Translations under genes and position numbers: made by a program
Shown here: positions 4,206 to 53,720 of the stretch, piece after piece
How the letters are laid out: every line of letters begins with the position of its first letter
How positions within the stretch are numbered: the stretch's first letter is position 1
Notes under the pieces: model-generated
Database searches by the model: none
What the model saw: the letters and a program-made list of their open reading frames with translations, nothing else
What the model was told of the DNA's origin: nothing
From: Candidatus Kapaibacterium sp.
Lineage (GTDB): Bacteria; Bacteroidota; Ignavibacteria; Kapaibacteriales; UBA961
Assembly (NCBI GenBank): GCA_017302855.1
Contig: JAFLBY010000001.1
Location: 9,208 to 73,207, forward strand
DNA length: 64,000 nucleotides
Direction of reading: 5' to 3'

Positions 4206-6062
4206 ATGAATTTTAACATTATTGTCATAGGCGGCGGACATGCCGGCATAGAAGCAAGCAGAATAGCAGCAAAACTAGATTGCAAAGTTGCGCTGATATC
4301 CATGGATTCACGAACCATCGGAAGACTATCATGTAATCCCTCTGTTGGCGGGACAGCAAAAGGTCATTTAGTTAAAGAAATAGACGCATTAGGGGGAATT
4401 ATGCCCACTATAGCCGACCACACCGGTTTACAATTCAAAATGCTCAATAAAAGCAAAGGTCCTGCCGTTTGGTCACCACGAGCGCAAAACGACAATGTGC
4501 TCTACCCTGTTTCTGCTCAAAAACAACTTCTTTCCAATCAGAATATTACCATTATTCCTGCAAACATTACCGAGATAATTATAGAACGACAACATGTTAA
4601 AGGCGTTCGTACCGACGAAGGAACTACAATTACAGCACCTATAGTAATACTATGCTCAGGCACATTTCTCAAAGGTCAAATGTTCACAGGGATGCACGCT
4701 ACACCCGGTGGCAGAGTCGGAGAAAAGCAAGCATACTCCATTTCCGACAAATTATCCGAACTTGGACTCGAACGCGGTCGCTTGAAGACAGGCACACCAC
4801 CTCGAATTGATATTAACTCTATAAACTTCAAAAAAACAAAGATTTCCACTGGTGACATCACACCAACTCCATTCTCTTTTAGAACAAAAAAAGTCAAAAA
4901 CAAACTTGTTTGTCATGAAACATCTACGAACTCAAAAACTCATGACATTTTACGTACAGGTTTTGAACAATCCCCCATGTTCACAGGCTTGATACATGGC
5001 TCGGGACCTCGTTATTGCCCATCTGTAGAAGATAAAATCTCTCGTTTTTCGGATAGAGACTCTCATCTTATTGTACTTGAAAGAGAAAGTTTGTTCACAA
5101 ATTCGGTCTATGTAAACGGTTTTTCAACGAGTTTACCGGCAGAAGTTCAACAAAACGCACTTTTTACCATACCCGGATTAGAACAGGCAAGGATTTTGCG
5201 GTACGGTTATGCGGTCGAATATGATTTCTTTTATCCGTATCAGTTGAAATATACTTTAGAAACAAAAAGTATAGACGGTCTGTTTTTAGCCGGGCAAATT
5301 AACGGTACATCAGGATATGAAGAGGCTGCTGCACAAGGATTGATAGCCGGAATAAACGCTGCACGGAAAGCAAAAAACATGAACGAATTTATTCTCAATC
5401 GTTCAGAAGCTTATATCGGCGTTATGATTGATGATTTGGTGAATAAAAACACCGAAGAACCTTACAGGATATTTACATCTTTAGCAGAATACAGACTTCT
5501 TCTTCGCCAAGACAATGTGTACGAACGACTATCTGATAAAGCATATTCAATGAATTTGTTTTCGTCGGAAGAGTTTGCACTGCTTGATTCTTGGCTATCC
5601 GACAAAAAAGAGTTTTTGAAGTATGCAGAAAACACAAAACTGAAACCTGATATGATTAACCCATATTTAAGCAGATGGAGTGAATCAATGGTTAATGAAA
5701 GTATTTCTGTTAAAGCTCTTTTGAAGCGTCCAACACTTTCATTAGATGTGCTTCAGTCTATATTGTTTCAAGATTCTTCCCTCAGTTTAGTTCAGCAGTA
5801 TAAAATGGATGCAGCTCAACTCGGTGAGATAGAAATCAAGTACGAAGGCTATATATCAGCACAACACAGAGAAGTAGAAAGATTCAAACACAATGAAAAA
5901 ATCACAATTTCTCCTGATTTTGATTTTCTACGTATCAATTCTTTGTCAAAAGAAGGTAGAGAGAAATTAACAAAAATTCGACCAATTACATTAGGGCAAG
6001 CATCCAGAATACCCGGAGTTTCTGCTTCTGATATTTCTATTCTGGCTGTCTATCTTCGATAA
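4206..6062 (+). CDS. mnmG: tRNA uridine 5-carboxymethylaminomethyl modification enzyme MnmG (GidA)
   Basis: [24 protein letters not shown]-binding start. ~620 aa with full-length MnmG architecture. The ORF-track start at 4200 is a TTG; the ATG at 4206 is more likely. Confidence 0.9.
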
Positions 6063-6064
6063 TT

Positions 6065-6078
6065 GTTTCACGTGAAAC
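6065..6078. promoter_or_regulatory. Second copy of the GTTTCACGTGAAAC palindrome (mnmG 3' end / 7 nt before the next start codon)
   Basis: Identical 14-mer followed by GTTTTTAT. Could equally be a weak terminator hairpin. Confidence 0.3.
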
Positions 6079-6084
6079 GTTTTT

Positions 6085-7026
6085 ATGGAACATATAAATT
6101 TAATTGGAATTGATGGCGGTGGTTCGAAGACTCGGGGAGTCTTAAAATCAGGCAACACTATTATAGCTCAAGCCCAAATGGGTACTACTCGCGTAGGTTC
6201 AATTGGTACGGGCGAATCTTGCGAAAGAGTATTGAACCTTATCAAAGATCTATGCAAAACAGCTAACATGGAATTGAATGAGGTAGAAGGAATCGTTGTA
6301 GGTTTAGCAGGAATTTGGTTAGAAGAAGAGAGAAAAAGATATGCAAACTTATTGAGAACTTTGGCAAGAAACGAAAAAACGCCCATAAACGAAGTACTAC
6401 TTACAAGTGATGCTGAAATTGCACTCGTAGGAGCTTTAGGCGGAAAACCCGGTATTATTCAAATTGCTGGAACAGGAACAATAACATTGGCAAAAAACAG
6501 TGCCGGTGAGATGTTCAGATGCAGTGGTTGGGGTATAGAGATTGACGATGAAGGAAGTGGTGCTTGGATTGGTCGTGAATGCTTGACTGCAATAGTAAGG
6601 GCTTTAGACGGAAGGGATAAAACAACTGAAATGACTGATAAAGTCGCAGAACGTTATTCCACATTCAATAAAAATAATCCACGAACTTTGGTGGCGGCAC
6701 TCAATGAAAAAAAATTCGAGTATCATGATTTCACAAAAATGGCAATGGAGTCAGCAGAAAACGGTGATGAAGTGGCTTACTCTATTCTTGAAAGAGCTTC
6801 TCAACACTTGACTGAAAGCATCAAAACGCTCCATAAAAAATTGGGAACAAAGACTTCTGATGTTTGCTTAATGGGCGGTATGCTCGAAAATGAAACAATT
6901 CTTTTGAGACTACTCAAAAAAAATCTGGATAGTAAAAGTGGTATAAAAATAAAGAAACCAATCGGCAACGCTTTGGATGGTGCTTTGTTATTAGCAGCAG
7001 ATATGGTTGAAATAAAGGAAATATAA
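6085..7026 (+). CDS. BadF/BadG/BcrA/BcrD-type ATPase (N-acetylglucosamine kinase-like)
   Basis: MEHINLIGIDGGGSKTRGVL N-terminal phosphate-1 motif of the ASKHA/BadF family; 313 aa. Confidence 0.55.
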   Translation: MEHINLIGIDGGGSKTRGVLKSGNTIIAQAQMGTTRVGSIGTGESCERVLNLIKDLCKTANMELNEVEGIVVGLAGIWLEEERKRYANLLRTLARNEKTPINEVLLTSDAEIALVGALGGKPGIIQIAGTGTITLAKNSAGEMFRCSGWGIEIDDEGSGAWIGRECLTAIVRALDGRDKTTEMTDKVAERYSTFNKNNPRTLVAALNEKKFEYHDFTKMAMESAENGDEVAYSILERASQHLTESIKTLHKKLGTKTSDVCLMGGMLENETILLRLLKKNLDSKSGIKIKKPIGNALDGALLLAADMVEIKEI

Positions 7027-8309
7027 TGAATAGTGTTACAAAACTTCTTTTCGCTCTGTGTTTCTTCGTCGCATATTCTGCATTAGCGCAAGATCCAACA
7101 CCAAAATATAATCCAACCACAGTTTCTATTGCCAGATCCTTATCAAGAGATTTGCTTGGTAACAATAGTACAGGATTTCTCACCCCTCTCGTAACAACAA
7201 GTAATGCAACTTCCAATTCTCGATTTTTTAGATCGGCTCATGTTCCGAAAAAAGTTGATAAACCATATTTTCGATTTGGTATCCACGCAATGACCGGTGC
7301 AGTTCGTGATGATCAAAAATCATTTAAACCCATAAGCCCTGTTGGTAATTCTAGTGATGAGTTAAATAAAACATTTAGTTCATTAATTGAACTTCCAGTA
7401 ACTAGAGATACATCAAAACTTATTTACGGAATAATACGATATATTTTTGCCAAGGGTTTAGAAGACCCTACAAGCGGAATAACATTTCCATCTTCATCAC
7501 CAACAATATTTGGTAAAGGTGAAGGCAATCTAACACTAGACAAAAACTACTTTAGAAAAGAGCTAGACGGATTACTAAGAATAATTCCAAACGCACAACT
7601 TTCAGAGGAACAAAGAATAAGTTTAAATAATGCGATCAATGGACTTCCCCCCGCTTTTCCCCTACCAACAGGTGGTGACATTTCTCAAGTGTTTGCGGGA
7701 GTTCCTCAATTTGAAATTGGCTCATTCTATGGAACAGAGTTACTTTTACGCTTTATTCCACCCGTGAAATTTGATAAAAACATAGGCGATTTCTCTTTTT
7801 ATGGCATTGGGCTTAAACACTCTCTTTCACAGTATTTCGATGAAGCACCATTAGATGTCGCCGTACAAGTAGTATATCAACAAACAAGCTTAGCGCAAAT
7901 AGTAGGTTTCACAAAAGCAGAGTTGAAAGCAGATGCCAATATCTATGATGCTAATCTTCAATTCAGTAAAAAATTTAAAGATATTACTCCTTGGTTTGGC
8001 GATCTTGAATTCTTTGGCGGCTATTCTTTTGAACAATTTAATATTGTCTCAACCTATACTTACACCCTACCCGTAACCTTACAAAAGGATTTGGGTCTCA
8101 GGGTTGAGAAAAATGGTGAAATAGTTGCAGACCCTGAAAATGGTTATCCGGGCGATACCGAACCCCAAGTAGCAAAAGGAACAATCGAAGATACTAACCA
8201 TAAACTGATTCTCGGTGTTGCAAAACCAATAGGTCCAGTGACAATTGCCTTCGACTACAGTATTAGTAGATTCAATTTGTTCTCTCTCGGTCTGGACTTT
8301 ACTTTCTAA
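7026..8309 (+). CDS. Secreted hypothetical protein, probable outer-membrane beta-barrel
   Basis: Signal peptide MNSVTKLLFALCFFVAYSALAQD. C-terminal ...LGLDFTF with a terminal aromatic residue. Confidence 0.35.
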   Translation: MNSVTKLLFALCFFVAYSALAQDPTPKYNPTTVSIARSLSRDLLGNNSTGFLTPLVTTSNATSNSRFFRSAHVPKKVDKPYFRFGIHAMTGAVRDDQKSFKPISPVGNSSDELNKTFSSLIELPVTRDTSKLIYGIIRYIFAKGLEDPTSGITFPSSSPTIFGKGEGNLTLDKNYFRKELDGLLRIIPNAQLSEEQRISLNNAINGLPPAFPLPTGGDISQVFAGVPQFEIGSFYGTELLLRFIPPVKFDKNIGDFSFYGIGLKHSLSQYFDEAPLDVAVQVVYQQTSLAQIVGFTKAELKADANIYDANLQFSKKFKDITPWFGDLEFFGGYSFEQFNIVSTYTYTLPVTLQKDLGLRVEKNGEIVADPENGYPGDTEPQVAKGTIEDTNHKLILGVAKPIGPVTIAFDYSISRFNLFSLGLDFTF

Positions 8310-8704
8310 TGCTTTTGTGTTTGTTTTTTATGGAGATACACAGGATAAGTAACAACAGAATCTTCGGCATTGGTATAAATGTAATAATCAACTCGCATAA
8401 CACTATCTGTTAATCGTGATACATCTATATTCAAATAAATGTAACCCAACGATGTTGGATGTATTACAGCACGACCAACACCGGCGGTTGCGCAACCACA
8501 AGAACTTTTTACCTCTTTGATAGTCATTGGTGAACCACCAGTGTTTATAACTTTGATGCTTTCACGTACAAACCTAACAGAATCAGGATAATAAACCACT
8601 GATTTTTTTGGCTTTAAATGCAATTGTGGTTTGGATTGCTCTTGCGCAATCACTAAAACTGCACCAACCAACAAAAACACACAAACAGACAGGGACTTAA
8701 ACAC
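8306..8704 (-). CDS. DUF1573-like secreted protein
   Basis: Signal peptide plus a CGC-containing beta-sandwich motif (SSCGCATAGVG); 132 aa. Confidence 0.35.
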   Translation of the reverse strand: MFKSLSVCVFLLVGAVLVIAQEQSKPQLHLKPKKSVVYYPDSVRFVRESIKVINTGGSPMTIKEVKSSCGCATAGVGRAVIHPTSLGYIYLNIDVSRLTDSVMRVDYYIYTNAEDSVVTYPVYLHKKQTQKH

Positions 8705-9443
8705 GAATCACCTCTTCAAAAACATCACTAAACTCATAAAGACCTTGTTTGCCAACGATCCATCGTGCTGCCATTAGTGCGCCTCTTGCAAAACCATCTC
8801 TGTTTTTTGCAGAATGTGACAGAGTTATTGTGTCGCAATCACTGTCAAATGATAATGTGTGCTCACCAATCACAGAACCCATTCTCTGAGACGATACATG
8901 AAGTTCATGAGGGAGAATATGGCGACCATTTACGGACTCAGTACATAGAACCGTTTTTGATTTAAATTCATCTAACACTATATTTGACAAAGATATAGCT
9001 GTTCCTGAAGGACTATCTAATTTGTGACGATGATGGGATTCATGTAAAGAGACATCATATATTTGGCTTTGATAAGCAAGCCGGCTTAACAAACTCGTCA
9101 TCGTGAAAAGGATATTCATACCTATTGAGAAGTTTGAACCATAGATAACACTTCCTTTTCCTTTTGCAACGATATCTTGTACTACCGATAGAGAATCATA
9201 CCATCCGGTCACCCCTAAAACTAATGGTGTATTGTGAGCAACAGCATATTCAATATGAGATAAAGCAGCAGAAGGAGCAGAAAAGTCAATCAGAACATCA
9301 ATATTTGACAAATCTTTATTTTTCAACAAGTTATAAATATCAAATTTTTCTACGATTGAAAGCGAAAAAGAATCTGAAAGTCGCTCCAATTCTTTCCCCA
9401 TTTTCCCATAACCAATCAAACCGACCCGTGTTGGATGTTCCAT
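8697..9443 (-). CDS. dapB: 4-hydroxy-tetrahydrodipicolinate reductase DapB
   Basis: N-terminal RVGLIGYGKMGKEL Rossmann fold. Diagnostic ESHHRHKLDSPSGTA motif. Confidence 0.8.
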   Translation of the reverse strand: MEHPTRVGLIGYGKMGKELERLSDSFSLSIVEKFDIYNLLKNKDLSNIDVLIDFSAPSAALSHIEYAVAHNTPLVLGVTGWYDSLSVVQDIVAKGKGSVIYGSNFSIGMNILFTMTSLLSRLAYQSQIYDVSLHESHHRHKLDSPSGTAISLSNIVLDEFKSKTVLCTESVNGRHILPHELHVSSQRMGSVIGEHTLSFDSDCDTITLSHSAKNRDGFARGALMAARWIVGKQGLYEFSDVFEEVIRV

Positions 9444-9445
9444 AC

Positions 9446-10126
9446 TTACTCCTCATTTTTCTTAGAATGTTGCACCTTAACTACATTACCATCAACAAGT
9501 TCAAAAAGTGCGTCAGTGTGTTTAACAAATGTGTTTCTATTGAAGGTAAACACCATAACCCCTTTTTTTTCAGGCATATACTTACTAACTATATCAAAGA
9601 AAACATCAGAAGATTTTGAGTCTAAGCCTATAGTAGGTTCATCAGCAAGAAGAAAATCAGGCTCAAAAATCGTTGCTTGGATAAGAGATAAAAGTTTCAA
9701 CTCACCAAAAGACACTTCATAAGGAAACTTTGAGCGCAAATGACTTAGCTCATACTCGGAGAGAATATCCATAGTCCTCTTTCTCGACTCATTTTCCTTC
9801 ATTCCGCAGACAAAAAGTGGTATCATGATATTTTCTTCAATAGTATAATGATGAGAGAATGCATTAGATTGACGAACAATACCTAATTTGCGTCGAAGTT
9901 CGCGTCTTTGCGACAGTTTCATAACTTTGGTACTTTGACCGTTAATATATGCTGTTCCTTGAGATGGTAATTTATCGCCTAGCAATAACTCAAACAACGT
10001 TGATTTACCGGCTCCCATGGCACCCTCGACAACAGTAAAACCATGTTCAGGAAACACCATTGAAAGCGAATCAATGACCGGTAGAACATCAAACATATAC
10101 GACACGGAACGGAATTCAAACTTCAT
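9446..10126 (-). CDS. FtsE-like ABC ATPase
   Basis: Degenerate Walker A (GAMGAGKST), ABC signature region, Walker B (LLADEPTIGLD); 226 aa. No adjacent permease gene. Confidence 0.5.
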   Translation of the reverse strand: MKFEFRSVSYMFDVLPVIDSLSMVFPEHGFTVVEGAMGAGKSTLFELLLGDKLPSQGTAYINGQSTKVMKLSQRRELRRKLGIVRQSNAFSHHYTIEENIMIPLFVCGMKENESRKRTMDILSEYELSHLRSKFPYEVSFGELKLLSLIQATIFEPDFLLADEPTIGLDSKSSDVFFDIVSKYMPEKKGVMVFTFNRNTFVKHTDALFELVDGNVVKVQHSKKNEE

Positions 10127-39994: not shown

Positions 39995-40030
39995 ATAGAG
40001 ATACTTGCCTATTTCTTCAGAAAAACTCTT

Positions 40031-40068
40031 GCTGCTTTTTGTGGCAAGAGTTTTTTTGTTTTTCTGCT
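40031..40068 (+). terminator. Rho-independent terminator after the GT2 gene
   Basis: ACTCTTGC-loop-GCAAGAGT followed by TTTTTTTGTTTTT. Confidence 0.45.
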
Positions 40069-40243
40069 TCATTATTTTCATTGTGATGATGCCATTTGTC
40101 GGGATGAAAAAATCCCGTCATTATGTCATCATACGAGAAAAAATACATCCACCCCGTCCTTCGGACACTCCCTCAAAACGGGAATTTTGAAATTCAGCGC
40201 GTCATGGAATCCCGCAGGGATGACATTATACTAGCAAATCTTT

Positions 40244-40273
40244 CCAAAAAACCTTCCCCTCCATCGGAGGGGT
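40244..40273 (-). terminator. Rho-independent terminator (minus strand) downstream of the CTD remnant and STAND gene
   Basis: CCCCTCC-gat-GGAGGGG hairpin followed on the minus strand by GGTTTTTTGG. Lies in a locally GC-rich segment. Confidence 0.4.
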
Positions 40274-40336
40274 GTCCGCAGGACGGGGTGGGTTCATTCC
40301 ATCAGACGCAGTCTGACGGGGTGGACGCATTTATCA

Positions 40337-40567
40337 CTACCTCACCACCATAAACAGAGCTTTTTGTCCTGTGGCGGGAATGCGTGCACAATACATACCT
40401 GTCTGCGATCTGCTTATGTCTATCGAATGTTCATATCCCTGATACATAAGCGAACCCTGCATATCGGCAATGAAGACCAAGGCATTATCTGTACCGGTAG
40501 GCGTGTGGTTGTGATGTGTTGGTATTTTAAACTTCTTGGTCATGGAGTTTGTTGGAATTAATTTCAA
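40337..40567 (-). pseudogene. Orphan T9SS C-terminal sorting-domain remnant (3' fragment of a disrupted secreted-protein gene)
   Basis: The 76-aa ORF ...ALVFIADMQGSLMYQGYEHSIDISRSQTGMYCARIPATGQKALFMVVR matches the T9SS CTD pattern. It has no upstream cargo domain, and its 5' end overlaps the STAND gene stop in another frame. Confidence 0.35.
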
Positions 40568-43500
40568 ACATCGATAACTCCAAGAAATTTATAAAACTTT
40601 CATAGAATGAATAGAAATTAGTTTCTATTTTATAATCATTTATAAGTTTCAGTGTGTTTCCGGGAAAAAAATACAAACTATGAAAATAGTTGATAGTGTT
40701 CACTTTTCCAACAATAGCATTAAATAAAATTGGTTTTATGCTTCTTTTAACTTCTTTTTTGGGAAACAACTGAAATAGTTTTAAATCCGACAACGAAGAG
40801 TGTAATCCATCAGAATAAGATGCTACTTCATCTGGCTTTAATTTCAGTTCGGAAATTATTTTTTTGTCATTTATAGTAAGTATTCCGTTGTTTAATCGTG
40901 ATTGACTATCTTGTCTGTATGAGTTGTTGTGATCTGAATATTCAGTATAAGGAATTCCAATGTTCTTAAGAGACTTTGTTTTTTTATTCCGTTTTGAAAT
41001 ACGAACTCTGAATTTGTTAACTTCTAATATGTCTCTAAACTGATTACATCTATTTGAACTGAGAATGTTTTGAATATCATTAAAATCTATTTGCCTATCA
41101 TATATGTTATGTTGAAGTAATCTTTCTATTGATAGATTAAAAATACTATCTGGAAAACAGTTAATATGATTTGTAGGTAAACTAAACCAAGATACTTCTA
41201 ATTTGTTAATATCAAAATACTTTACCAAGATGTCAATTATACTCGTGGAATGTTGTTCAATATATTCTTCTAAAAGATGACGTACTCCCTTTTCTGATAA
41301 AGTCTGAATAGATGCTATTAGTTTAATAGATTCTATTTCTTTAACAAGACCCTTTTCTTCAAAAACTGAAAGTATGGTGGGGATAAATAGAACAGAATAA
41401 TCCTTTCTTTGATAGTATTTTGTCCAAAAAGTAGAAATGCTCGAGATATCAATGGTTTTATTTAAATGCAAGTTCAGACGAATATAATTTAATATTTCAA
41501 TCCATAAGTCAAAACTACCCAATTGACTGTTTTTAATGATAAAGTCTGCTAGTGATAAATTTAAGTAATCGTTTGTTCTTGCAACATGGCCAAGTGCCAG
41601 TATGTTGCGTCTCGCATCTTTTAATATAGACTTTGCAAATGCAGCGGGAATACGTTTCTTTTCAAGAAATTCTCGTAAATATAATAAGGACTCTTCATCT
41701 TCAGTATAAAAGTATTTATTAATAGTCATTTTTAAGTCTAAATAATCAGATTGTAGTTTTTCGTGGATGAATAAATTTTCCAACACAAAGGTCATTTTTT
41801 CGACGAATTCATAGTTGTCGTTAGATTCTATCAAAGCTTCAATTTCTATATTAGATAGTGCAGATTTGTGTGCGTTAAAAAAGGTATCTTCTTTTGTTGT
41901 TTCGTCTAATAAATTTTCAAAAAAACTGTTTGTATTATAATGGTCATTACTAGAAAGATTAAGCAACAATGAGATATTCCCCGTTTTAATAAAGTAAAAC
42001 ATACCAAAAAGATAGTCTGAGCTTGTAAAGTCTTTCTCTGTATATCCATGAAATAACAATGATTTTATATAGGTGTATAAAAATTTATTGTTAGTTGAAA
42101 TATAATCCCTTGATATTATATTGATAATTAATGATAAATCATAATAATCTTTCACATCTAAATCATTGGGTGAAAGTTCAAACAATGATCCTCTAAGTTG
42201 TCCATAGAATGATTGGATAGCCTCAAAATCTACAGTACCACTAACAAGAACTTTAAACTCAGAAATGTTTGAGAATCTGAGAATGATTTCTCGTTTCATT
42301 TCCATATCTAGATAGAAGAAATCAAACCTTGTAAGAAATGCAACTTCTGAGTTAAGGATTGAGTTGTAAACAATCATTTTTACTGTCTTTTGTCGTTCAG
42401 AATAATCAATGTTTTGGTTACGTAAATAAGTATTAAAGCTGTCGTGCAATAAAGAAACTCTGTTTAGCTTCTTTTCAAATAAATAAGGGTACTCACTTAT
42501 AAATTCTGAAACACTAACTCCTAATTCTTTACCTAAAAATTTTTCTATTTCATGGTGCATGATAAAAGAACGACAACAAAGAAACAATGTCAATAAAGAT
42601 TTTGTGTTTACCTTGTCTTTAAAAATTTCATCATAATACTCGTCTATAGTCTTTAACGTATTTAATTCAGGTAGATTGTTGTGTTCTTTATAATGTTCTG
42701 CCAAATATTTGACTAAAATAGGATAACCATCTGTAATCGAATATATGCGACTACAAACATCGTAATCGGTAATGTGAAAAAGTTTATCAAGAACCTTTTT
42801 TGTTTGCTCCTTGTTCCAATTAATAAGTTCATGTTTACTCCACTCCCATTGATGTTTCAATGGTCTGGTTAAAACTATTGTTTTACACTTTGTTTGTAAT
42901 TTTTGGATAAAGTCAATGATTTTTTTTAACTCTTTGCTATCGTAGTTTTCAACGTGGTCAATCCCGTCAATTATGACTATTTTGTTTACCTCCCATAATT
43001 TTGATAAAACTTCATTCTCATTCCTGTTAACTTGATCATTAAACAGTTTCTTCGAAAAGTCAAAGATAAAATTTGAAAACTTTAGCCTTTGATTATACTC
43101 TTTATCTTGGCTTGAAATCCAAAATCTGTAAATTATATTGTTTGGATATTCTTGAGTCAGACTATTGACAAGATGGCTTTTGCCAACTCCAGGTTTGCCT
43201 TCTATTACTATAATATTTTCAACAAATAGATGATTTCTTCCGACATCAATTGTTTGTTCGGTCAAATTGGTATCGAAAACGAGAATTGTTGGCAAATCCT
43301 TTCTCGCTATTCTAAATTTCCGCTCATCTAAACATGAATTAAAAAATCTGTTTATAATAAGTTCCCTTTCTTGGTTCAAATTGTATAAATTGGAAATTCT
43401 CTCATCAACATTTTCTCTGTTTAAAGAAACAATGTAAACATTGTTTGAAATATATGCAGGAATTCCGAATATTTCACAATTTGGCGAAATCTCGATTTGT

Positions 43501-43781
43501 TTAAAAAATATAATATTAGTGAATTGTGACAATAAATGTTTTTTGTTTTTTATAATTACTGAGTTTTCTTTGAATCGAAGAGAGTTAAGAGAAATGTCAT
43601 CAATATCTTTAATCTGGATGCAAAATTTTTCGTTAGTAGATGTTACTATTAAATCATCAAAGTGATTGTTAGCGTTTACTTCCATTTCAATTGAATCAAT
43701 ACTACGTTCAACATCCATTTTTGCTAAAAACAAAGATGTTATTTGTTTTTGATATGTGTATCCTGTATAAGCGTTTTTCAT
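40527..43781 (-). CDS. STAND-class P-loop NTPase (NACHT/NB-ARC-like), Avs-like candidate antiviral sensor: N-terminal PD-(D/E)xK-like domain plus long C-terminal helical-repeat region
   Basis: Walker A GKPGVGKSHLVNSL, Walker B KIVIIDGIDHV and TIVLTRP motifs. ~190-aa N-terminal domain with FDDLIV...EKFCIQIK (D...QxK). ~700-aa alpha-helical C-terminal half. Confidence 0.7.
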   Translation of the reverse strand: MKNAYTGYTYQKQITSLFLAKMDVERSIDSIEMEVNANNHFDDLIVTSTNEKFCIQIKDIDDISLNSLRFKENSVIIKNKKHLLSQFTNIIFFKQIEISPNCEIFGIPAYISNNVYIVSLNRENVDERISNLYNLNQERELIINRFFNSCLDERKFRIARKDLPTILVFDTNLTEQTIDVGRNHLFVENIIVIEGKPGVGKSHLVNSLTQEYPNNIIYRFWISSQDKEYNQRLKFSNFIFDFSKKLFNDQVNRNENEVLSKLWEVNKIVIIDGIDHVENYDSKELKKIIDFIQKLQTKCKTIVLTRPLKHQWEWSKHELINWNKEQTKKVLDKLFHITDYDVCSRIYSITDGYPILVKYLAEHYKEHNNLPELNTLKTIDEYYDEIFKDKVNTKSLLTLFLCCRSFIMHHEIEKFLGKELGVSVSEFISEYPYLFEKKLNRVSLLHDSFNTYLRNQNIDYSERQKTVKMIVYNSILNSEVAFLTRFDFFYLDMEMKREIILRFSNISEFKVLVSGTVDFEAIQSFYGQLRGSLFELSPNDLDVKDYYDLSLIINIISRDYISTNNKFLYTYIKSLLFHGYTEKDFTSSDYLFGMFYFIKTGNISLLLNLSSNDHYNTNSFFENLLDETTKEDTFFNAHKSALSNIEIEALIESNDNYEFVEKMTFVLENLFIHEKLQSDYLDLKMTINKYFYTEDEESLLYLREFLEKKRIPAAFAKSILKDARRNILALGHVARTNDYLNLSLADFIIKNSQLGSFDLWIEILNYIRLNLHLNKTIDISSISTFWTKYYQRKDYSVLFIPTILSVFEEKGLVKEIESIKLIASIQTLSEKGVRHLLEEYIEQHSTSIIDILVKYFDINKLEVSWFSLPTNHINCFPDSIFNLSIERLLQHNIYDRQIDFNDIQNILSSNRCNQFRDILEVNKFRVRISKRNKKTKSLKNIGIPYTEYSDHNNSYRQDSQSRLNNGILTINDKKIISELKLKPDEVASYSDGLHSSLSDLKLFQLFPKKEVKRSIKPILFNAIVGKVNTINYFHSLYFFPGNTLKLINDYKIETNFYSFYESFINFLELSMFEINSNKLHDQEV

Positions 43782-44061
43782 TAATTACAAATAATATTAA
43801 CTTCTTTCATTACTTAAATTTCTTCTTCGGTCAGTTCGTAAAGTTTCTGAACTAATGTGTCAATTTGGTCTGTTTAAGTCATCTGTGCTTCCGATGGCGG
43901 TAGATCTCACACAGCGAAGTAAACCACCGTTTGTTTCTCCAAAACTACAAAACTTTGAAAACTCAGACAAATATGAAGTTCTCATATTTCATTATGATAT
44001 AGCGTATCCTTGCTTTGCAATTCAATGACTGTCACCCTTTTCATACAAGAGGAGTGTTGAA

Positions 44062-44084
44062 TAAAAAAAGGGGCTTGCGCCCCT
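44062..44084 (-). terminator. Rho-independent terminator of the sugar-nucleotide operon
   Basis: Minus strand GGGGCGCAAGCCCC followed by TTTTTTT, immediately after the gmd stop. Confidence 0.55.
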
Positions 44085-44087
44085 TGT

Positions 44088-47910: not shown

Positions 47911-47969
47911 ATATAGTCCTTACTATGTGAAATTATTAACTGTCAGAATCCCGAAAAGATATATAATCC

Positions 47970-49034
47970 TTAGGCTTCAATCAATTCATTTACTTCTTCA
48001 TTCATTACTTCTTCATTCATTACTTCTTCATTCATTACTTCTTCATATACACAACTGTTTACCAAAGCATTTGCAATGTGCCACATTAAGACAGGTGGAA
48101 CAGCATTGCCAATTGCTCTGTATTGTCTATTCTCTGAAACACTGTCTAACGTAAATGTTAGCGGAAAAGATTGAATGTTTGCTGCTTCTCTTGGTGTAAA
48201 TCTTCTGTAACGTTCACCAACCATTAATACAGGGTCCGTTCCATTCAAACTGACTTTTGCAAGATGTGCACTGATTGTGTTACAGGGCTGTTCTAAATCT
48301 TGTACTCGTCCTTTGTTCATCTTTTCTCTTACTCGCAACATTCCATCAATGGCTCTTTGGCTGAAAAACCATTTTTCATCTTTGTGAGCTTCTTTATCAA
48401 TAACCTGTTTTAATTTTACTTTTGAACCGTTCAATGTGTTTGGTCTTGGAAATCTAAAATTAAAATAATCGTCAAAATCTCTGAAGCCAACAATAAAAAT
48501 GCGTTCGCGTTTTTGAGGAATACCAAATTCTGACGCATTTAACAGCTTAAAATGAATGTGATAACCTGCTTTCTCAAATTCGTTTACAATCATAGGGAGT
48601 GCTTTTCCTTTGTTTGCAGAAAGTAAACCTTTAACATTTTCTCCAATGAAAAAACGTGGCTGTTTTTCTTTCAGAATTTTTACCATCTCAAAAAACAATT
48701 TTCCTCTATCGTCTTTGTAGCCTAATCTGGGTGGGTTCTGTGCACTGATAGAAAATGATTGACAAGGAAAACCACCTAACAGAATATCGTGGTCAGGAAC
48801 TTCGTTTGGTATGATAGCTCTAACGTCTTTTATCTCACATTTATGCTCAAAATTATCGTTGTAAATTTTTGTTGAGTAACTATCGTTATCGACGGCATAC
48901 ACAACCTCAAAAGGTAAGGCAGCGTAATGATTGTCAAGAAAATCGAAATTTCCTTGAATACCTAAATCCATTCCTCCACAACCACAGAAAAGAGATGAGA
49001 CCTTTAATTTGTTATTTCCAGCAGTTTGTGCCAT
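47970..49034 (-). CDS. DNA (cytosine-5)-methyltransferase (M2 of the RM operon) with a C-terminal EEVMN peptide-repeat tail
   Basis: Motif I LFCGCGGMDLG, motif IV GGFPCQSFS, ENV motif. C-terminus (EEVMN)x3-4. Confidence 0.85.
   Translation of the reverse strand: MAQTAGNNKLKVSSLFCGCGGMDLGIQGNFDFLDNHYAALPFEVVYAVDNDSYSTKIYNDNFEHKCEIKDVRAIIPNEVPDHDILLGGFPCQSFSISAQNPPRLGYKDDRGKLFFEMVKILKEKQPRFFIGENVKGLLSANKGKALPMIVNEFEKAGYHIHFKLLNASEFGIPQKRERIFIVGFRDFDDYFNFRFPRPNTLNGSKVKLKQVIDKEAHKDEKWFFSQRAIDGMLRVREKMNKGRVQDLEQPCNTISAHLAKVSLNGTDPVLMVGERYRRFTPREAANIQSFPLTFTLDSVSENRQYRAIGNAVPPVLMWHIANALVNSCVYEEVMNEEVMNEEVMNEEVNELIEA
47985..48050. repeat. 15-bp tandem repeat (ttcattacttcttca, 3 perfect copies plus 1 variant) at the 3' end of the methyltransferase gene
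   Basis: Seen directly; in-frame, 5 aa per unit. Confidence 0.6.
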
Positions 49035-50446
49035 TGTCCTGATATTTTAGAAAATTCAACAACTAAGTTTTTATCAACTTTTAAATTACCTAATTTGAAT
49101 TGTTTAAATGGGTTTTGAATAATAAAGATGTTCTTGCTCTTATCGTTAATTACCAAGTAATAGACAAAATAACTGTCCCCTAATGTTTCTGCACTGTCCC
49201 ATTCGTTAGGCGTGAGTTTGAAACGATTATTGTTAATTGCTTTTCGTGATTTAGTTGTTTTTACTTCAATATATCGTTTTTTTTGAGGTATTTCGATACT
49301 TTGTAGGTCATATCCAACACCAAGAGGTGTCGGGATTTTGTTTATTAAGTGTTGACGGTTTGAACCACCTCTTGTTCTCAAATATTCATGTGCTAAAATT
49401 AACGTTTCACCATAATCCCCAAATATTTTTGTAGGTACTTTTCTATCTCCTTTGATGCGTGAGTAATACTCTTGAATAAGAGTAGATATGTTCTGTACTT
49501 CTTGTTCTTCTAAATGAGGGGCAAACGCTTCAATATTATCAAAGTTATTTACATAATCAAACCAAAGCTCTTCTAGTTTTCCAATTTCAGAATTTTTTGT
49601 TTCTTCTTCTAAATTGTAATATCTGTCATACTCACCAAACCATGTATTGTTTTGCAAGTGAAAGTTAATTGCTTCTATGTTTTTGTGATTCAGATAATAA
49701 TAATAACCTGTTCCTTTATGGTGCAAAAGATTGGCTAAAACCATGTAATCCAAAATGTCGCCAGCGTACCGATTAGTATCACCTTTTGATGGAAATTCGC
49801 CTGTTCGTTCGTTTCTTAATGCTTCGTAATTATATTCGTATTCCACTTTGTCTTTTCTGTTCTCTAGAATGAGATTTACAACTTCGTTTGCTTGCCTTTT
49901 TCCTGTTGTAACTCGAAGGTCGAAGTAAGCGCATTGCGTGAGTTCTTCTACTGTTAAGCTAAATGGTTTTCCTGTAATTTTTTCTCCCTCAACAAATAAA
50001 TTAAGTATGAATTGACAAGGTCTAAATTTTATACCAGCTTCAATTTGCTTAATTGTATTTTGAGATTTAATGTGTCCACCTGGGTATTGAAATGAAAACA
50101 AAAAGTAATTAAAAAATTCATCCAAATATTGATTGTTTGCAAGCCTCTTTGCTGTTAAGCCGGGTTCGGAGAAACCGTTCTTTTCTTGAATAAAACCAAA
50201 CAACGCTGAAATTTCAGTCCGCCAATTATCTATTGTCTTTTGTGCTGCTGTTGTGTTTTTTTTAAAACCAAACAATACCTTGTTTAATTCATTTTTAAAA
50301 TTGTTTTTTGATAAAACGGGCATTTCTGAAATTGTTGTTGCTACATACAATAAAACTTCTTCTACGTCATTTTTGAAACGTGGTCTTACATGATGTAATC
50401 TAAAAAAATACTCATCAGGTATTCTGTATGATTTTATTCTGCTCAT
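49004..50446 (-). CDS. Putative type II restriction endonuclease (C-terminal DUF3883-like PD-(D/E)xK domain)
   Basis: 480 aa. C-terminal ...GYDLQ...KKRYIEVKTTKS...FKLTPNEW...YFVYYLV is a D...EVK nuclease core. Sits between two m5C methyltransferase genes with overlapping start/stop. Confidence 0.5.
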   Translation of the reverse strand: MSRIKSYRIPDEYFFRLHHVRPRFKNDVEEVLLYVATTISEMPVLSKNNFKNELNKVLFGFKKNTTAAQKTIDNWRTEISALFGFIQEKNGFSEPGLTAKRLANNQYLDEFFNYFLFSFQYPGGHIKSQNTIKQIEAGIKFRPCQFILNLFVEGEKITGKPFSLTVEELTQCAYFDLRVTTGKRQANEVVNLILENRKDKVEYEYNYEALRNERTGEFPSKGDTNRYAGDILDYMVLANLLHHKGTGYYYYLNHKNIEAINFHLQNNTWFGEYDRYYNLEEETKNSEIGKLEELWFDYVNNFDNIEAFAPHLEEQEVQNISTLIQEYYSRIKGDRKVPTKIFGDYGETLILAHEYLRTRGGSNRQHLINKIPTPLGVGYDLQSIEIPQKKRYIEVKTTKSRKAINNNRFKLTPNEWDSAETLGDSYFVYYLVINDKSKNIFIIQNPFKQFKLGNLKVDKNLVVEFSKISGQWHKLLEITN

Positions 50447-51480
50447 AAGTATTTCATAATTTCATTTGCTAACACAGCTGCTAATATTGGAGGAACAGCA
50501 TTGCCTACCTGTTTGTATTGGCTCGTTTTACTTCCTAAAAAAATGAATGAATCTGGAAAGGATTGTATTCTCGCACTTTCTCTAACAGTAGGCACACGAT
50601 TGTATTTGTAATGAAAATGATGTCTGTGTCCTGTGTCAATAGTAAAACTTGGCTTCTTGCTGTTTAGTCTCGTCCAAGCAATATTTACATTCCTTGTTTT
50701 TCGTAATTCTTTAGGCAAGTCTTTATAGTTTCCGCCATCGGGAACTAATGAAATAATATGTGTTGTTTGCTCACTATGGTTAGTTGTTTCGTGATTGTAA
50801 ATACCCTTTGACCCTTCTCTAATTAATCTTTGATAATGAGATTTAGGTTTAGTTGTATATTTTGTCCCGTTTTCTAACGAATTTTTAGGCAAATCTGAAA
50901 TTGCATCTTTCGTATTTATAGGGGTTTTAGTTGTTGGTTCTGGGAAAACAAACTCTTTGTTGCTCTTTGTTCCAATAAAGAAAGCACGTTTTCTATTCTG
51001 CGGAACTCCATAATCAGAGGCTAATAAAATTTTGTAAACTACGGTGTAACCAAGTTTTTCAAAATCACTGAGAATTGTCTCTTTTACAATACCTTTTCCC
51101 ATAGAAATAATGTTTGGCACATTTTCCATTACAAACGCCTTAGGCTTGTAAAAACTAACAAAACTCAAAAATGATTTGTAAAGTTGATTGCGCTCGTCAT
51201 CAATTATTCTTTTTCCTGCAATAGAAAAACCTTGACAAGGAGGACCTCCAATAATCACATCTATACTTTTTATTCCTGTTTTTTTTGAAATTTCTTTCGC
51301 TGTCTCCGTAAATAAATCGGCTACAATTCCTTTTGCATTTTTGTGAGTGTTTTCAAAAGTTACAATCGCATCTTTCCAATTGTCAATTCCCAAAAGTACA
51401 TCATAGCCAGCTTCGATGAATCCATAAGAAAGTCCACCGCAGCCACAAAACAAGTCTATTACTGTTGGCTTCTTTTTCAT
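50443..51480 (-). CDS. DNA (cytosine-5)-methyltransferase (M1 of the RM operon)
   Basis: IDLFCGCGGLSYGF, GGPPCQGFSIAGKR and ENVPN motifs. Confidence 0.85.
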   Translation of the reverse strand: MKKKPTVIDLFCGCGGLSYGFIEAGYDVLLGIDNWKDAIVTFENTHKNAKGIVADLFTETAKEISKKTGIKSIDVIIGGPPCQGFSIAGKRIIDDERNQLYKSFLSFVSFYKPKAFVMENVPNIISMGKGIVKETILSDFEKLGYTVVYKILLASDYGVPQNRKRAFFIGTKSNKEFVFPEPTTKTPINTKDAISDLPKNSLENGTKYTTKPKSHYQRLIREGSKGIYNHETTNHSEQTTHIISLVPDGGNYKDLPKELRKTRNVNIAWTRLNSKKPSFTIDTGHRHHFHYKYNRVPTVRESARIQSFPDSFIFLGSKTSQYKQVGNAVPPILAAVLANEIMKYL

Positions 51481-51499
51481 TTTCTAACTTGATAATGTC

Positions 51500-51808
51500 T
51501 CATTTTGTGTTCATATTCTTCAAATAGTTTACCTTTTCTTCTGCAACCACCAATGTTTCGGTAGGGCAGTTATAAGCATACATCTTTTTTGCAAATTGAT
51601 CTCCAAAATATTCAATCTTTAATCTTTCAATATCAAGACTAAAAACTATTGCTAATTTGGTTAATCGCTTTTCGTCAAACTCTCTCTTCCCATTTTCGAT
51701 TTTGCTAAGATTTGCAGAATCAAGGTCAAGACGGAATGCAAGTTGCGTTAAAGTCAAGCCATTGTCTGTTCTTAGTTTCTTGATGTATTCACCAAAAGTT
51801 GCCTTCAT
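51500..51808 (-). CDS. XRE-family HTH regulator, candidate RM controller (C) protein
   Basis: FGEYIKKLRTDNGLTLTQLAFRLDLDSANLSKIENGKR HTH_3. First gene of the C-M-R-M operon. Confidence 0.6.
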   Translation of the reverse strand: MKATFGEYIKKLRTDNGLTLTQLAFRLDLDSANLSKIENGKREFDEKRLTKLAIVFSLDIERLKIEYFGDQFAKKMYAYNCPTETLVVAEEKVNYLKNMNTK

Positions 51809-51826
51809 AAGATTATACCTCGAAAC

Positions 51827-51843
51827 TTGTCAATCATTGACAA
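51827..51843. promoter_or_regulatory. 17-bp palindrome TTGTCAAT-C-ATTGACAA 19 bp upstream of the controller gene (candidate C-box operator)
   Basis: Seen directly; perfect inverted repeat around a single central base. Confidence 0.45.
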
Positions 51844-52002
51844 ATTTAACAATAGTTTTTGGTTAAACAATCTCTATTGATTCTGCTCTCCTGTGTTCTA
51901 TCACCTATGTTTGTCTAACTGTGCTGTTCTTTCGGATGACCAATCTATTCATATTATACCCCTCAATAACCATTTGCCCCAGAAAGCGGCTCATTTCTAT
52001 TA

Positions 52003-52096
52003 TCCATCGGAAGAAATAGGGCTTTGTTTCGGTCATCTTCGCCGCCAATCGGAAGAAAAGTAGTTTCGTTTCGGTCATCTTCGCCGCCCATCGCCT
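52003..52096. repeat. Imperfect ~44-bp direct repeat x2 (core tttcggtcatcttcgccgcc)
   Basis: Seen directly. Confidence 0.5.
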
Positions 52097-52242
52097 TGTA
52101 TGAATCAGATTCTCTTTTGTATAGGGTAAAAAGGGGCTGAGATATATCGAAAATGCAATGAGATGAGGCAAAGTTTTGGCTTTATGAACCGAAAACTGCC
52201 TGTTTTGCCCTAAAAACGCGGAAAGTTGTATAAGAAATGGCG

Positions 52243-52557
52243 GTTTCCTGCTCAATTCAAGTGGTTTCCTGTTCAATTCAAGTGGTTTCCTGTTCAATTC
52301 AAGTGGTTTCCTGTTCAATTCAAGTGGTTTCCTGTTCAATTCAAGTGGTTTCCTGTTCAATTCAAGTGGTTTCTTGCTCAATTCAAGTGGTTTCCTGTTC
52401 AATTCAAGTGGTTTCTTGCTCAATTCAAGTGGTTTCCTGTTCAATTCAAGTGGTTTCCTGTTCAATTCAAGTGGTTTCCTGTTCAATTTAAGTGGTTTCC
52501 TGTTCAATTTAAGTGGTTTCCTGTTCAATTTAAGTGGTTTCCTGTTCAATTTAATGA
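52243..52557. repeat. Tandem array of about 14.5 copies of a 21-bp unit (ggtttcctgttcaattcaagt) with a few point variants (cttgctc; caattta)
   Basis: Seen directly. The array is head-to-tail with no spacers, so it is not a CRISPR array. Confidence 0.9.
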
Positions 52558-52796
52558 GGTTTTGCAGCATCCGATGAAGGTTTTGATACATTTCATTCGC
52601 TCTTTATGGTATATGGTCGAGGTTTTTGTGTATCCGAGAGGGGCTTCAGGGCATTTGTCTGCGTTTTTTATGAATATGATTAAGAAGATTCCTCACACAA
52701 TGCGGTTTTTTGTGCATTTGAGCGGAAGGATGAGCCATTCGTTGCAAGAGTTTGTGCATCCGAAGCAATCGTTATTGCTTGTTTTGATGTGTTTTG

Positions 52797-53720
52797 TTAT
52801 GATTGCTGCGTATTGAGTATAGCCCTAAGAGAGTCATGTTGTTGTTGGGAAATCATTGCATAGCTGTATGCGATGGTCGCGGTGGCATTGCTGAAGTATT
52901 TGTATGAAGTCTGAATGTCGGTAGTATCTGCCAGAGCATCAATGTGATGACTGACGGTATGGGTATCGCCGCGAGAGATGGGTCCGGTCAAGGGAGGAAT
53001 GTCCGCGTCGAGTGTGTTGAGGCAATTTTCTACTGCGGTGAGAATGATGGGTGGTAAAAAGAGTTCGGGTTCTATGCCTGCTTGGTTTGCTAATGATTTT
53101 GCATGGGTTATTGCTGCCACAAGAAAGTTCGATGCCGCCACTGCCGCGGCGTGGTATTGTGCTTTGTGTTGGCGGGTATAGTCGCTAAGAATGATGGGAT
53201 TGCCGCCCAAAGCCATGACGAAAGCGGAAAGTAAGTCTTCGCTGTCGCTCATGCAATCAATGCCCCATGCGATGTCACGCAAGACGGTATCGGTTTCGCC
53301 CGTGAAGGTTTGGAAGGGATGAATGGCAGCACAGATCGCGCCGTTCATCATACATTCGGTTAAGGGTTCTATGCTGTATGCGCCGGAACAATGCACGATG
53401 GTACATCCGGCGAGAGATGCTCCAAAATGCGCTGCCACATCGGCAGACACTGTCTCAATGGCACTATCAGGCACGGCAAGGATAAGGAGTTGGGGCGGAT
53501 GGGGTATATAGTCAAGTTCTTGGAGTAAGGGGATTTCCGTTGGCAATATGGAGGTAAGTTGCTCCAAACGCGCACCGGAACGAATCAGCATCCATTCAAG
53601 TTTGTGCATTTTTGCAGTTGCCATTGCTAATGTTGTCCCCAATTTTCCACCACCGATAATGCCGACGGTCGGTACTGTGTCAGCGGAGCCAAAGACCCCA
53701 CCCCCTGCATAGTGTGCCAT
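52797..53720 (-). CDS. Rossmann-like / DUF2520-domain protein (predicted NAD(P)-dependent oxidoreductase)
   Basis: VGIIGGGKLGTTLA dinucleotide-binding start; 307 aa. Confidence 0.45.
   Translation of the reverse strand: MAHYAGGGVFGSADTVPTVGIIGGGKLGTTLAMATAKMHKLEWMLIRSGARLEQLTSILPTEIPLLQELDYIPHPPQLLILAVPDSAIETVSADVAAHFGASLAGCTIVHCSGAYSIEPLTECMMNGAICAAIHPFQTFTGETDTVLRDIAWGIDCMSDSEDLLSAFVMALGGNPIILSDYTRQHKAQYHAAAVAASNFLVAAITHAKSLANQAGIEPELFLPPIILTAVENCLNTLDADIPPLTGPISRGDTHTVSHHIDALADTTDIQTSYKYFSNATATIAYSYAMISQQQHDSLRAILNTQQS

Follow-up and report, generated by a model that had tools for sequence, protein, structure and literature searches.

Bacteria carry a well-known class of immune receptors, the antiviral STAND (Avs) proteins. 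In a 2026 census, STAND proteins were sorted into 589 clades and Avs sensors into at least 90 families; the 684 sensor clusters of this census were defined by a Foldseek TM-score of at least 0.4 at 80% coverage (Lee et al., Nature 2026, PMC13581612). The Avs representatives tested experimentally in that survey came from Proteobacteria and Myxococcota, mostly from Enterobacteriaceae. One of them, SeAvs7, is a Cap4-STAND-bilobed TPR protein of 1523 residues that senses the major capsid protein. It is autoinhibited in the apo state, opens upon ligand binding, forms tetramers in an ATP-driven manner and cleaves dsDNA with its Cap4 domain. The Cap4-STAND-TPR proteins Avs3 and Avs7 both work by the mode that is proposed below for a different protein (PMC13581612).

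Nucleases of the Cap4 type are also known from systems with other switches. In CBASS, the Cap4 effector is switched on when its SAVED domain binds a cyclic oligonucleotide, and in Lamassu the effector LmuA is switched on by release from an SMC-like complex, whereas in the protein described here a fused STAND NTPase would be the switch. Lysine K57 is essential in LmuA of V. cholerae (bioRxiv 10.1101/2025.04.02.646746). A further group for comparison is the bacterial NACHT (bNACHT) proteins; the NACHT signature in Walker B is D[GAS]hDE (Koonin & Aravind; Kibby et al., bioRxiv 10.1101/2022.07.19.500537).

In this study, we analyzed a STAND gene in a 64,000-nucleotide stretch of DNA (the window) from Candidatus Kapaibacterium sp. 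The gene is a complete ORF (1084 amino acids plus stop, ATG start) at 40527..43781 on the minus strand, where all its parts given below also lie. A preliminary description of the window had located the ORF and its motifs correctly. The product is 100% identical to GenBank MBN8572316.1, a protein from a metagenome-assembled genome (MAG) named 'ATP-binding protein [Candidatus Kapabacteria bacterium]', and its AlphaFold model is confident (pLDDT 86.6 over the full length, 84.8 for the N-terminal domain). The G+C content of the gene is ~0.30, and the values across 40-44 kb are 0.29-0.33, below the roughly 0.36-0.43 of the surroundings. A terminator-like hairpin (44068..44085, minus strand) follows the GDP-mannose dehydratase gene, which suggests a separate transcript for the STAND gene; a second such hairpin (40256..40272, minus strand) lies ~255 nt past its stop codon.

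The N-terminal domain (residues 1-165, 43287..43781) is a predicted effector with a PD-(D/E)xK nuclease fold of the Cap4/DUF4297 type. Its predicted catalytic core (residues 23-59, 43605..43715) holds the conserved acidic residues and the (E/Q)xK lysine of a Cap4 nuclease, here as QxK. In an alignment of 40 family sequences with 43-84% identity to the query, D43, Q56 and K58 are invariant and E32, E34, D42 and D59 reach 90% conservation or more; D23, ahead of the D42-D43 pair and the Q56-I-K58-D59 string, also falls within these limits. These data agree with the earlier proposal of a PD-(D/E)xK-like D...QxK arrangement before the P-loop, which was based on the strings FDDLIV (residues 41-46) and EKFCIQIK (residues 51-58). 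K58 is as far from the N-terminus as K57, the lysine that is essential in V. cholerae LmuA, and the nuclease domains of LmuA and HamA are the two best matches to the N-terminal domain outside CBASS. The window's own domain matched no family in a Pfam search, including PF14130 (DUF4297; gathering threshold 26.2 bits). In 16 of 30 relatives, PF14130 aligns co-linearly (protein 3-82 to profile 5-86) with scores of 13-19 bits, below this threshold. A low-confidence linker (residues 166-187, 43221..43286; pLDDT below 50 at residues 168-180) joins the nuclease to the NTPase.

The P-loop nucleotide-binding domain of the STAND NTPase (residues 188-320, 42822..43220) contains the Walker A motif GKPGVGKS (residues 195-202, 43176..43199), in which G195, K196, P197, G198, G200, K201 and S202 are invariant in the family alignment. 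Walker B (IVIIDGIDH, residues 268-276, 42954..42980) has a NACHT-like D-G-h-D signature with invariant D272, G273, D275 and H276, and the sensor-1 region TIVLTRP (residues 301-307, 42861..42881) contains the invariant pair R306-P307. Thus, hallmark residues in all three strings on which the preliminary description had based its STAND core (GKPGVGKS, KIVIIDGIDHV at residues 267-277, and TIVLTRP) do not vary across the family. The helical and winged-helix domains that complete the module (residues 321-458, 42408..42821; AlphaFold2 secondary structure) add two invariant motifs absent from that description, a GxP motif (G352-Y-P354) and an MHD-like H446-D447; in the winged-helix region, a beta-hairpin (435-444) precedes a helix. 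Together, Walker A and B, R306, GxP and H446 define an NBD-HD-WHD STAND NTPase, whose structural neighbors are Avs3, Avs4, MalT, NLRs and Apaf-1.

All Pfam NTPase matches of the Kapaibacterium protein are below curated cutoffs; NACHT (PF05729) reaches 23.8 bits against a gathering threshold of 26.7 bits. Among the 40 relatives, PF05729 matches 33 weakly (best E-value 1.1e-5), and the NACHT-related NPHP3_N model matches every one (best E-value 8.3e-9). NCBI or UniProt records call several members of the family 'NACHT domain-containing protein'. The family Walker B, D272-G-[IL]-D275-H276, fits four of the five positions of D[GAS]hDE. The tripartite layout, the NACHT-like D-G-h-D Walker B and the (T/S)RP sensor-1 are common to this family and the bNACHT proteins (bioRxiv 10.1101/2022.07.19.500537), but the last residue of the signature is acidic in bNACHT and an invariant His here. 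The bNACHT models of PADLOC do not match the Kapaibacterium protein.

When the full-length model was compared with solved structures by Foldseek, SeAvs3 (Salmonella enterica Avs3, PDB 8DGC) was the best match, followed by an archaeal STAND, with EcAvs4 ranked fourth in the structure listing, and MalT and plant NLRs also present. SeAvs3 has 2028 residues compared with 1084 here, and the match spans the NTPase and the nuclease but not the terminase-binding sensor (TM-scores 0.12-0.18). The protein has the three parts of an Avs protein, i.e., an N-terminal effector (1-165), a STAND NTPase (188-458) and 626 residues beyond it, where an Avs sensor has at least 400. The Avs layout read from the sequence in the preliminary description is therefore supported by fold matches, by invariant motifs and by the defense-hotspot setting described below. 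The gene product is very likely a single-protein phage sensor in which a Cap4-type DNA nuclease, a STAND ATPase acting as the switch and a large helical sensor are fused.

Sequence searches gave a different picture. No family member matched the Avs1-5 models of PADLOC-DB v2.0.0 at E-values of 0.1 or below (40 members searched), and PADLOC matches were limited to weak P-loop ones (mad8 and MkoA); as a positive control, the Avs2 models recognized two proteins neighboring the homologs at an E-value of 2e-64. Hence, the check with Avs1-5 profiles suggested in the preliminary description did not place the family, but Foldseek with the full model still finds SeAvs3 and EcAvs4, and the wording 'divergent or undescribed' is fair with respect to current models. 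The family profile did not retrieve SeAvs3 from PDB sequences at E-values of 1 or below. Sequence searches of solved structures, whether with the protein itself, with a profile of the full length or with one of the N-domain, yielded just the P-loop match 1YE8 and chance matches, and an NCBIfam search gave P-loop matches alone, far below threshold.

Past the STAND module, an all-helical, solenoid-like region of ~25 helices is the predicted sensor (residues 459-892, 41106..42407; AlphaFold2 model, mean pLDDT of 10-residue blocks mostly in the low 80s to mid 90s). No Pfam family, neither TPR nor another repeat model, fits this region, and solved structures in PDB gave no specific match to it. The protein ends in a mixed alpha/beta domain (residues 893-1084, 40530..41105; AlphaFold2 model), its least conserved part. 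Of the ~700 residues of helical repeats proposed earlier, the helical character holds for 459-892, but repeats were not evident and the last ~190 residues are mixed alpha/beta. That the C-terminal region senses a protein is an assumption, because the predicted sensor resembles no solved Avs sensor. The region might instead sense a nucleic-acid state or a small molecule, e.g., DNA ends, replication intermediates or modified DNA, in a defense nuclease of the same architecture. Such sensing would have parallels in Lamassu and Hachiman, where nucleases of the same Cap4 type, LmuA and HamA, respond to DNA states; the missing TPR match and the separate alpha/beta domain also fit it, and Lee et al. 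(PMC13581612) allowed that non-protein molecules may be sensed by some STANDs. We regard this as unlikely, since all Avs families with a known trigger sense a protein (PMC13581612). The mean column identity of the sensor is near that of the NTPase (0.61 vs 0.70), which fits recognition of a conserved fold but favors neither idea over the other.

The genomic setting was examined as well. In strains whose flanks are 98-99.7% identical, a Shedu sduA ORF stands exactly in place of a cassette formed by the STAND ORF and 21 nt upstream of it (40524..43802, minus strand); in strains whose gmd gene is identical, Shedu SduA or a secreted BNR protein fills the slot. Directly upstream of the STAND gene is a remnant (43799..43870, minus strand) of an MmeI-like type IIG RM gene, encoding its C-terminal tail (…LYELTEEEI*; tblastn E-value 1e-4, junction alignment). 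In a relative, L001, this RM gene is intact 16 nt upstream of an 84%-identical STAND gene. As judged by these sequence comparisons, the type IIG RM gene beside the STAND gene has been lost here and its 3' remnant kept. A 260-bp stretch upstream, present with both the STAND and the Shedu allele, was considered as a shared 'leader', and this idea was rejected because the stretch is the C-terminal tail of the deleted RM gene. A metagenome scan with a 21-mer found the same species only, plus one unrelated locus in which the motif lies ~440 nt downstream of an MmeI-like gene. The RM operon that had been described as adjacent (M.C5, BpuJI-like REase and M.C5, 47970-51480) is in fact 4.2 kb away, beyond three sugar-nucleotide genes, but the Shedu allele and the type IIG remnant do mark a defense hotspot.

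Neighbors of the homologs point in the same direction. Homologs are flanked by AbiE, SIR2-HerA, HEPN, integrases and IS elements. In ~60 genomes, the nearest neighbors include type IIG RM, GajA, Avs2, AriA and PglX/DrmMI-like proteins; with the Shedu slot, these neighbors associate the family with defense genes. The proximity of some homologs to integrases or IS21 elements, together with weak NCBIfam matches to the IS21 helper IstB, could be taken to indicate a non-immune AAA+ ATPase with a nuclease (of the Cdc6/Orc, TnsC, MuB or IstB type) of a mobile element or in a housekeeping role, acting in transposition, replication or DNA repair. This explanation is very improbable. Neither the window nor L001 has a transposase or integrase linked to the gene, no partner gene is conserved, and Shedu occurs as the alternative allele at this site. 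In addition, the GxP motif, the His-Asp pair of the winged helix and the NACHT-like DGxD and TRP motifs are STAND-specific and invariant, and in Foldseek Avs3, the archaeal STAND, Avs4 and MalT all rank above every ORC match. Carriage by plasmids or phages was likewise rejected, as PLSDB and INPHARED contained no match. The 64-kb window contains no tRNA that could mark an integration site. The ~360-aa proteins encoded directly upstream in two other loci (L004 and L008) were considered as conserved partners and rejected; the two are not related and belong to no Pfam family, which indicates a single-gene system. Finally, the deletion of the adjoining type IIG RM gene, of which the tail alone is left, might suggest that the STAND gene is itself a decaying or inactive relic of a defense island, but this is the least credible possibility, as the ORF is intact and identical to the GenBank MAG protein, all catalytic and nucleotide-binding residues are conserved and the whole chain is modeled with confidence.

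Taken together, the gene probably encodes a single-polypeptide antiviral STAND receptor of the Avs type, similar to NLRs. By analogy with SeAvs3, EcAvs4, SeAvs7 and LmuA, its resting state would be an ADP-bound monomer in which H446 of the winged helix contacts the nucleotide and the nuclease is held inactive. The C-terminal sensor would bind a ligand from the phage, most likely a conserved fold of a phage protein, and binding would open the NTPase for ATP binding and oligomerization, probably to a tetramer. Upon oligomerization, the Cap4 domains may then come together as an active dsDNA nuclease, whose indiscriminate cleavage of DNA would abort the infection.

The family is discrete, with fixed length and architecture, and is captured neither by PADLOC Avs models nor by Pfam thresholds. 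It occurs mostly in Bacteroidota, with a patchy distribution in Bacillota, Spirochaetota, Cloacimonadota, Chloroflexota and archaea; in Proteobacteria, a 2.9-kb MAG fragment assigned to Pseudomonadales by binning is the sole match. Unlike in many Avs families, no shuffling of effector or sensor was seen. We tentatively suggest, as a reading somewhat short of even chances, that it is a distinct Avs lineage outside Avs1-24 with a fixed Cap4-NACHT-like-helical-alpha/beta architecture. Its sensor fold might have a new trigger, either a part of a Bacteroidota or archaeal virus or a non-protein signal received through the alpha/beta domain, and it may have spread horizontally between phyla and to archaea without domain shuffling.

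If antiviral, the family would supply Bacteroidota, several further phyla and archaea with a tractable pattern-recognition receptor encoded by a single gene. Bacteroidota include the fish pathogen Flavobacterium psychrophilum, for which phage therapy is being pursued. Since current defense-annotation models miss the family, defense inventories of these genomes under-count it. The gene-for-gene replacement of STAND by Shedu in near-identical strains is also a natural experiment in the turnover of defense cassettes at a fixed chromosomal slot.

With regard to known systems, the published description of SeAvs7 (PMC13581612) offers a close parallel; the structure of SeAvs7 was absent among the PDB matches. 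SeAvs7 has the same domain order, with a Cap4 domain of ~200 residues, an NTPase with a conserved winged-helix histidine and a helical sensor. The SeAvs7 sensor, however, occurs with 20 or more different effectors and in Dsr1 as well, whereas the Kapaibacterium family keeps to one architecture. The protein is very likely an unnamed member of an established class of receptors, and it leaves the concept unchanged. What appears new, from sequence comparison, is an uncharacterized family without a matching Avs model; the Avs class itself, its Cap4-STAND receptors and their mechanism are already known.

The candidate Avs-type STAND gene is a minus-strand ORF (40527-43781) of 1084 codons with an ATG start, and it contains all strings quoted in the preliminary description: FDDLIV (residues 41-46), EKFCIQIK (51-58), GKPGVGKS (195-202), KIVIIDGIDHV (267-277) and TIVLTRP (301-307). 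The gene is AT-rich (G+C 0.29-0.33 across 40-44 kb versus roughly 0.36-0.43 in windows around it). Terminator-like hairpins are located 3' of the upstream GDP-mannose dehydratase gene, gmd (44085-44068), and ~255 nt beyond the STAND stop codon; the gene therefore looks like a separate transcription unit. Its product is 100% identical to a MAG protein, GenBank MBN8572316.1, whose sole label is "ATP-binding protein [Candidatus Kapabacteria bacterium]".

Structural comparison of the N-terminal domain gave matches to Lamassu LmuA (9ux8_C, score 9.7), Cap4 of A. baumannii (6vm6, 9.4) and E. cloacae (7yib, 9.1), Hachiman HamA (8zue, 8.6) and SeAvs3 (8dgc, 7.1). The domain of the window protein itself has no Pfam match. 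Among 30 relatives, the sole Pfam family matched repeatedly by this domain was Cap4_nuclease (PF14130), in 16 proteins, at 13-19 bits, below the 26.2-bit cutoff. Each alignment runs co-linearly from the N-terminus (protein 3-82 corresponding to profile 5-86), and the sequence-level support for a Cap4-type domain is weak but consistent. Invariant residues are G7, Y8, Q11, D23, R26, E34, D43, Q56, K58 and D59. Since D43, Q56 and K58 are invariant, the "D…QxK" arrangement pointed out earlier marks the conserved core, and K58 is as far from the N-terminus as K57, which is essential in V. cholerae LmuA (bioRxiv 10.1101/2025.04.02.646746). Judged by these residues, the Cap4-type nuclease core is intact.

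In the NTPase, all Pfam matches of the window protein are sub-threshold: AAA_18 (29.3 bits vs 29.4 cutoff), NACHT (23.8 vs 26.7), NPHP3_N (22.5 vs 24.8), AAA_16 and nSTAND3. The matches are consistent among 40 relatives, all of which matched NPHP3_N (best E 8e-9), 37 AAA_16, 34 nSTAND3, 33 NACHT and six NB-ARC. Walker A, Walker B (I-I-D-G-x-D-H) and sensor-1 ((T/S)-R306-P) are invariant, as are G352-Y-P354, the GxP motif of the helical domain, and the pair H446-D447, which follows closely on the winged-helix hairpin at the position of the "MHD" histidine; by these motifs, the STAND switch is intact. Walker B and (T/S)RP resemble the NACHT motifs; in the D[GAS]hDE signature that defines the NACHT clade, the last position is an invariant His in the present family.

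The large C-terminal region is predicted, in an AlphaFold model, to consist of ~25 helices (residues 459-892) and a mixed alpha/beta domain (893-1075). Of the proposed helical repeats after the NTPase, helicity is confirmed, and TPR-like repeats found no support: Pfam repeat models did not match the C-terminal part, and solved structures gave no specific match to it. In bNACHT01, C-termini diversify rapidly (bioRxiv 10.1101/2022.07.19.500537). Here, in contrast, C-terminal conservation is just slightly below that of the NTPase, with mean column identities of 0.61 (helical part), 0.54 (alpha/beta domain) and 0.70 (NBD).

A mechanism can be proposed by analogy with SeAvs3, EcAvs4, SeAvs7 and LmuA, and in part with what Gao et al. 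reportedly described in 2022. The resting protein would be an ADP-bound monomer whose nuclease is kept inactive. Upon binding of a phage ligand by the sensor, the NTPase would swap its nucleotide and the protein would oligomerize, probably as a tetramer; paired Cap4 domains would then form an active dsDNA nuclease, and DNA cleavage would abort the infection. The weakest link of this scheme is what kind of trigger the sensor would bind. Sensing of a DNA state or a small molecule is an improbable, though real, alternative to sensing of a phage protein. The C-terminal conservation would fit a sensor whose target is itself conserved.

A word-indexed search returned 638 homologues; the complete ones listed are mostly 1050-1100 residues long, align end to end and are labeled "hypothetical", "AAA family ATPase", "NACHT domain-containing" or, once, "DUF2075". 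When a 40-sequence family profile was run exhaustively with HMMER against 1.84 billion cluster representatives, only 341 proteins passed E <= 0.001, of which 164 passed E <= 1e-30. Of the best 150 matches, the long ones are co-linear with essentially the whole profile and the others resemble contig-truncated fragments, so the family is discrete, with a single fixed architecture. These 150 gave no sign of the exchange of effectors or sensors that is reported for Avs7. With one genome scanned per species, 118 relatives were found, most of them in Bacteroidota (Flavobacterium, Pedobacter, Chryseobacterium, Arenibacter, Tenacibaculum and others); those in Bacillota, Spirochaetota, Cloacimonadota, Chloroflexota and two archaeal MAGs are 29-36% identical over the full length. 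From Proteobacteria, these searches yielded only one MAG fragment, of 2.9 kb and binned to Pseudomonadales, and no homologue was found in PLSDB plasmids or INPHARED phages.

The 118 nearest neighbors, from about 60 genomes, include type IIG RM, GajA, Avs2, Argonaute-associated REase, AriA and PglX/DrmMI-like proteins (PADLOC), as well as resolvases, integrases, SMEK_N, ResIII and BrxL (Pfam). Distant homologues adjoin AbiEi/AbiEii, SIR2-HerA, HEPN/NTase, integrases and IS21. No neighbor is conserved, which makes this a single-gene system. A gene for a Upx-like restriction endonuclease of 1202 aa (PF28173; 5221-8829 in contig L008, 1950-5558 in L009) is found in Arenibacter two genes 5' of the STAND orthologue; an unannotated 357-aa protein is also encoded there, all genes are on the same strand, and the three may form a compact defense operon.

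The STAND gene resides in a defense hotspot. In contigs with 100% identical gmd, the interval from gmd to a GT2 glycosyltransferase gene holds one occupant each: the STAND gene, a Shedu gene (418-aa SduA_C protein; L011, L014 and L016) or, in other strains, a gene for a 797-aa BNR/Por-secretion protein. The flanks of the window and L014 are 98-99.7% identical, and homology ends at window 40523 and 43803 (window 40524-43802 corresponding to L014 5332-6599), ~4 nt 3' of the stop codon and ~21 nt 5' of the start codon. The STAND ORF plus 21 nt and the sduA ORF have thus been swapped with near-codon precision. The ~530 bp from the GT2 gene to the STAND stop codon (40005-40523) contain no convincing ORF and are kept in every allele, 40303-40497 even in the BNR type; candidate roles are those of recombination flank, regulatory region and small-RNA locus.

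In L001, a contig with an 84%-identical STAND gene, an intact gene for a 1454-aa MmeI-like type IIG RM enzyme (5621-9985) lies directly upstream and stops 16 nt before it. In the window, 43799-43870 (minus strand) encodes …LYELTEEEI-stop, the last ~24 codons of this gene (tblastn E 1e-4), the rest of which has been deleted. The scar is common to Shedu-carrying strains, so this loss predates the STAND/Shedu exchange. A 41-aa ORF (43860-43985) is probably spurious. In an unrelated metagenome contig (L017, 6679-7140), …LYDLTEEEI-stop occurs ~440 nt 3' of the stop of an MmeI-like gene (DUF7149/DUF7814/Eco57I/TaqI_C), suggesting a second specificity-domain tail that was truncated or split off.

The RM operon cited earlier as context is present (47970-51480) but lies 4.2 kb off, beyond three sugar-nucleotide genes, and is weaker evidence of context than the occupants of the gmd-GT2 interval. 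It places a BpuJI-like endonuclease (BpuJI_N/NOV_C; 49004-50446) between two C5 methyltransferases (M.C5; 47970-49034 and 50443-51480), and this three-gene system sits on a 4.0-kb insertion (47933-51933) that is strain-specific, being missing from the sister strains L010, L011 and L016; in L016 there is instead, a few kb from the site, a Vsr/Bse634I/C5-MTase cassette. At the 3' end of the first methyltransferase gene, a 15-bp tandem repeat (47984-48046, 4.1 copies) codes for a repeated EEVMN tail, and copy-number change could alter or phase-vary the C-terminus. Adjoining the insertion is a 21-bp tandem repeat, GGTTTCCTGTTCAATTCAAGT (52242-52551, 14.8 copies, 96% matches), present in L010 and L016 and not in L011. 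The long ORFs that this array yields on either strand (51905-52591 and 52226-52816) are probably no real genes. A 42-bp repeat is located at 52006-52093.

The Avs-like reading of effector, STAND ATPase and sensor was right in substance. PADLOC Avs models, which recognized the Avs2 neighbors as a positive control, matched neither the STAND protein nor its 40-member family, in line with the suggestion of a divergent or undescribed member. The finding is less surprising than first judged. Lee et al. counted 589 STAND clades, 198 of them defense-associated, and 684 sensor structural clusters, 90 of them prominent, and assigned triggers to Avs7, Avs8 and Avs10-21 (Nature 2026, PMC13581612). The present family has GenBank members and was probably swept into this census. 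Characterized Avs representatives come from Proteobacteria, and the Cap4-STAND-helical receptors Avs3 and Avs7 have been characterized in detail (PMC13581612). The Cap4-STAND kind is already well established, and within it the STAND protein family is new and uncharacterized.
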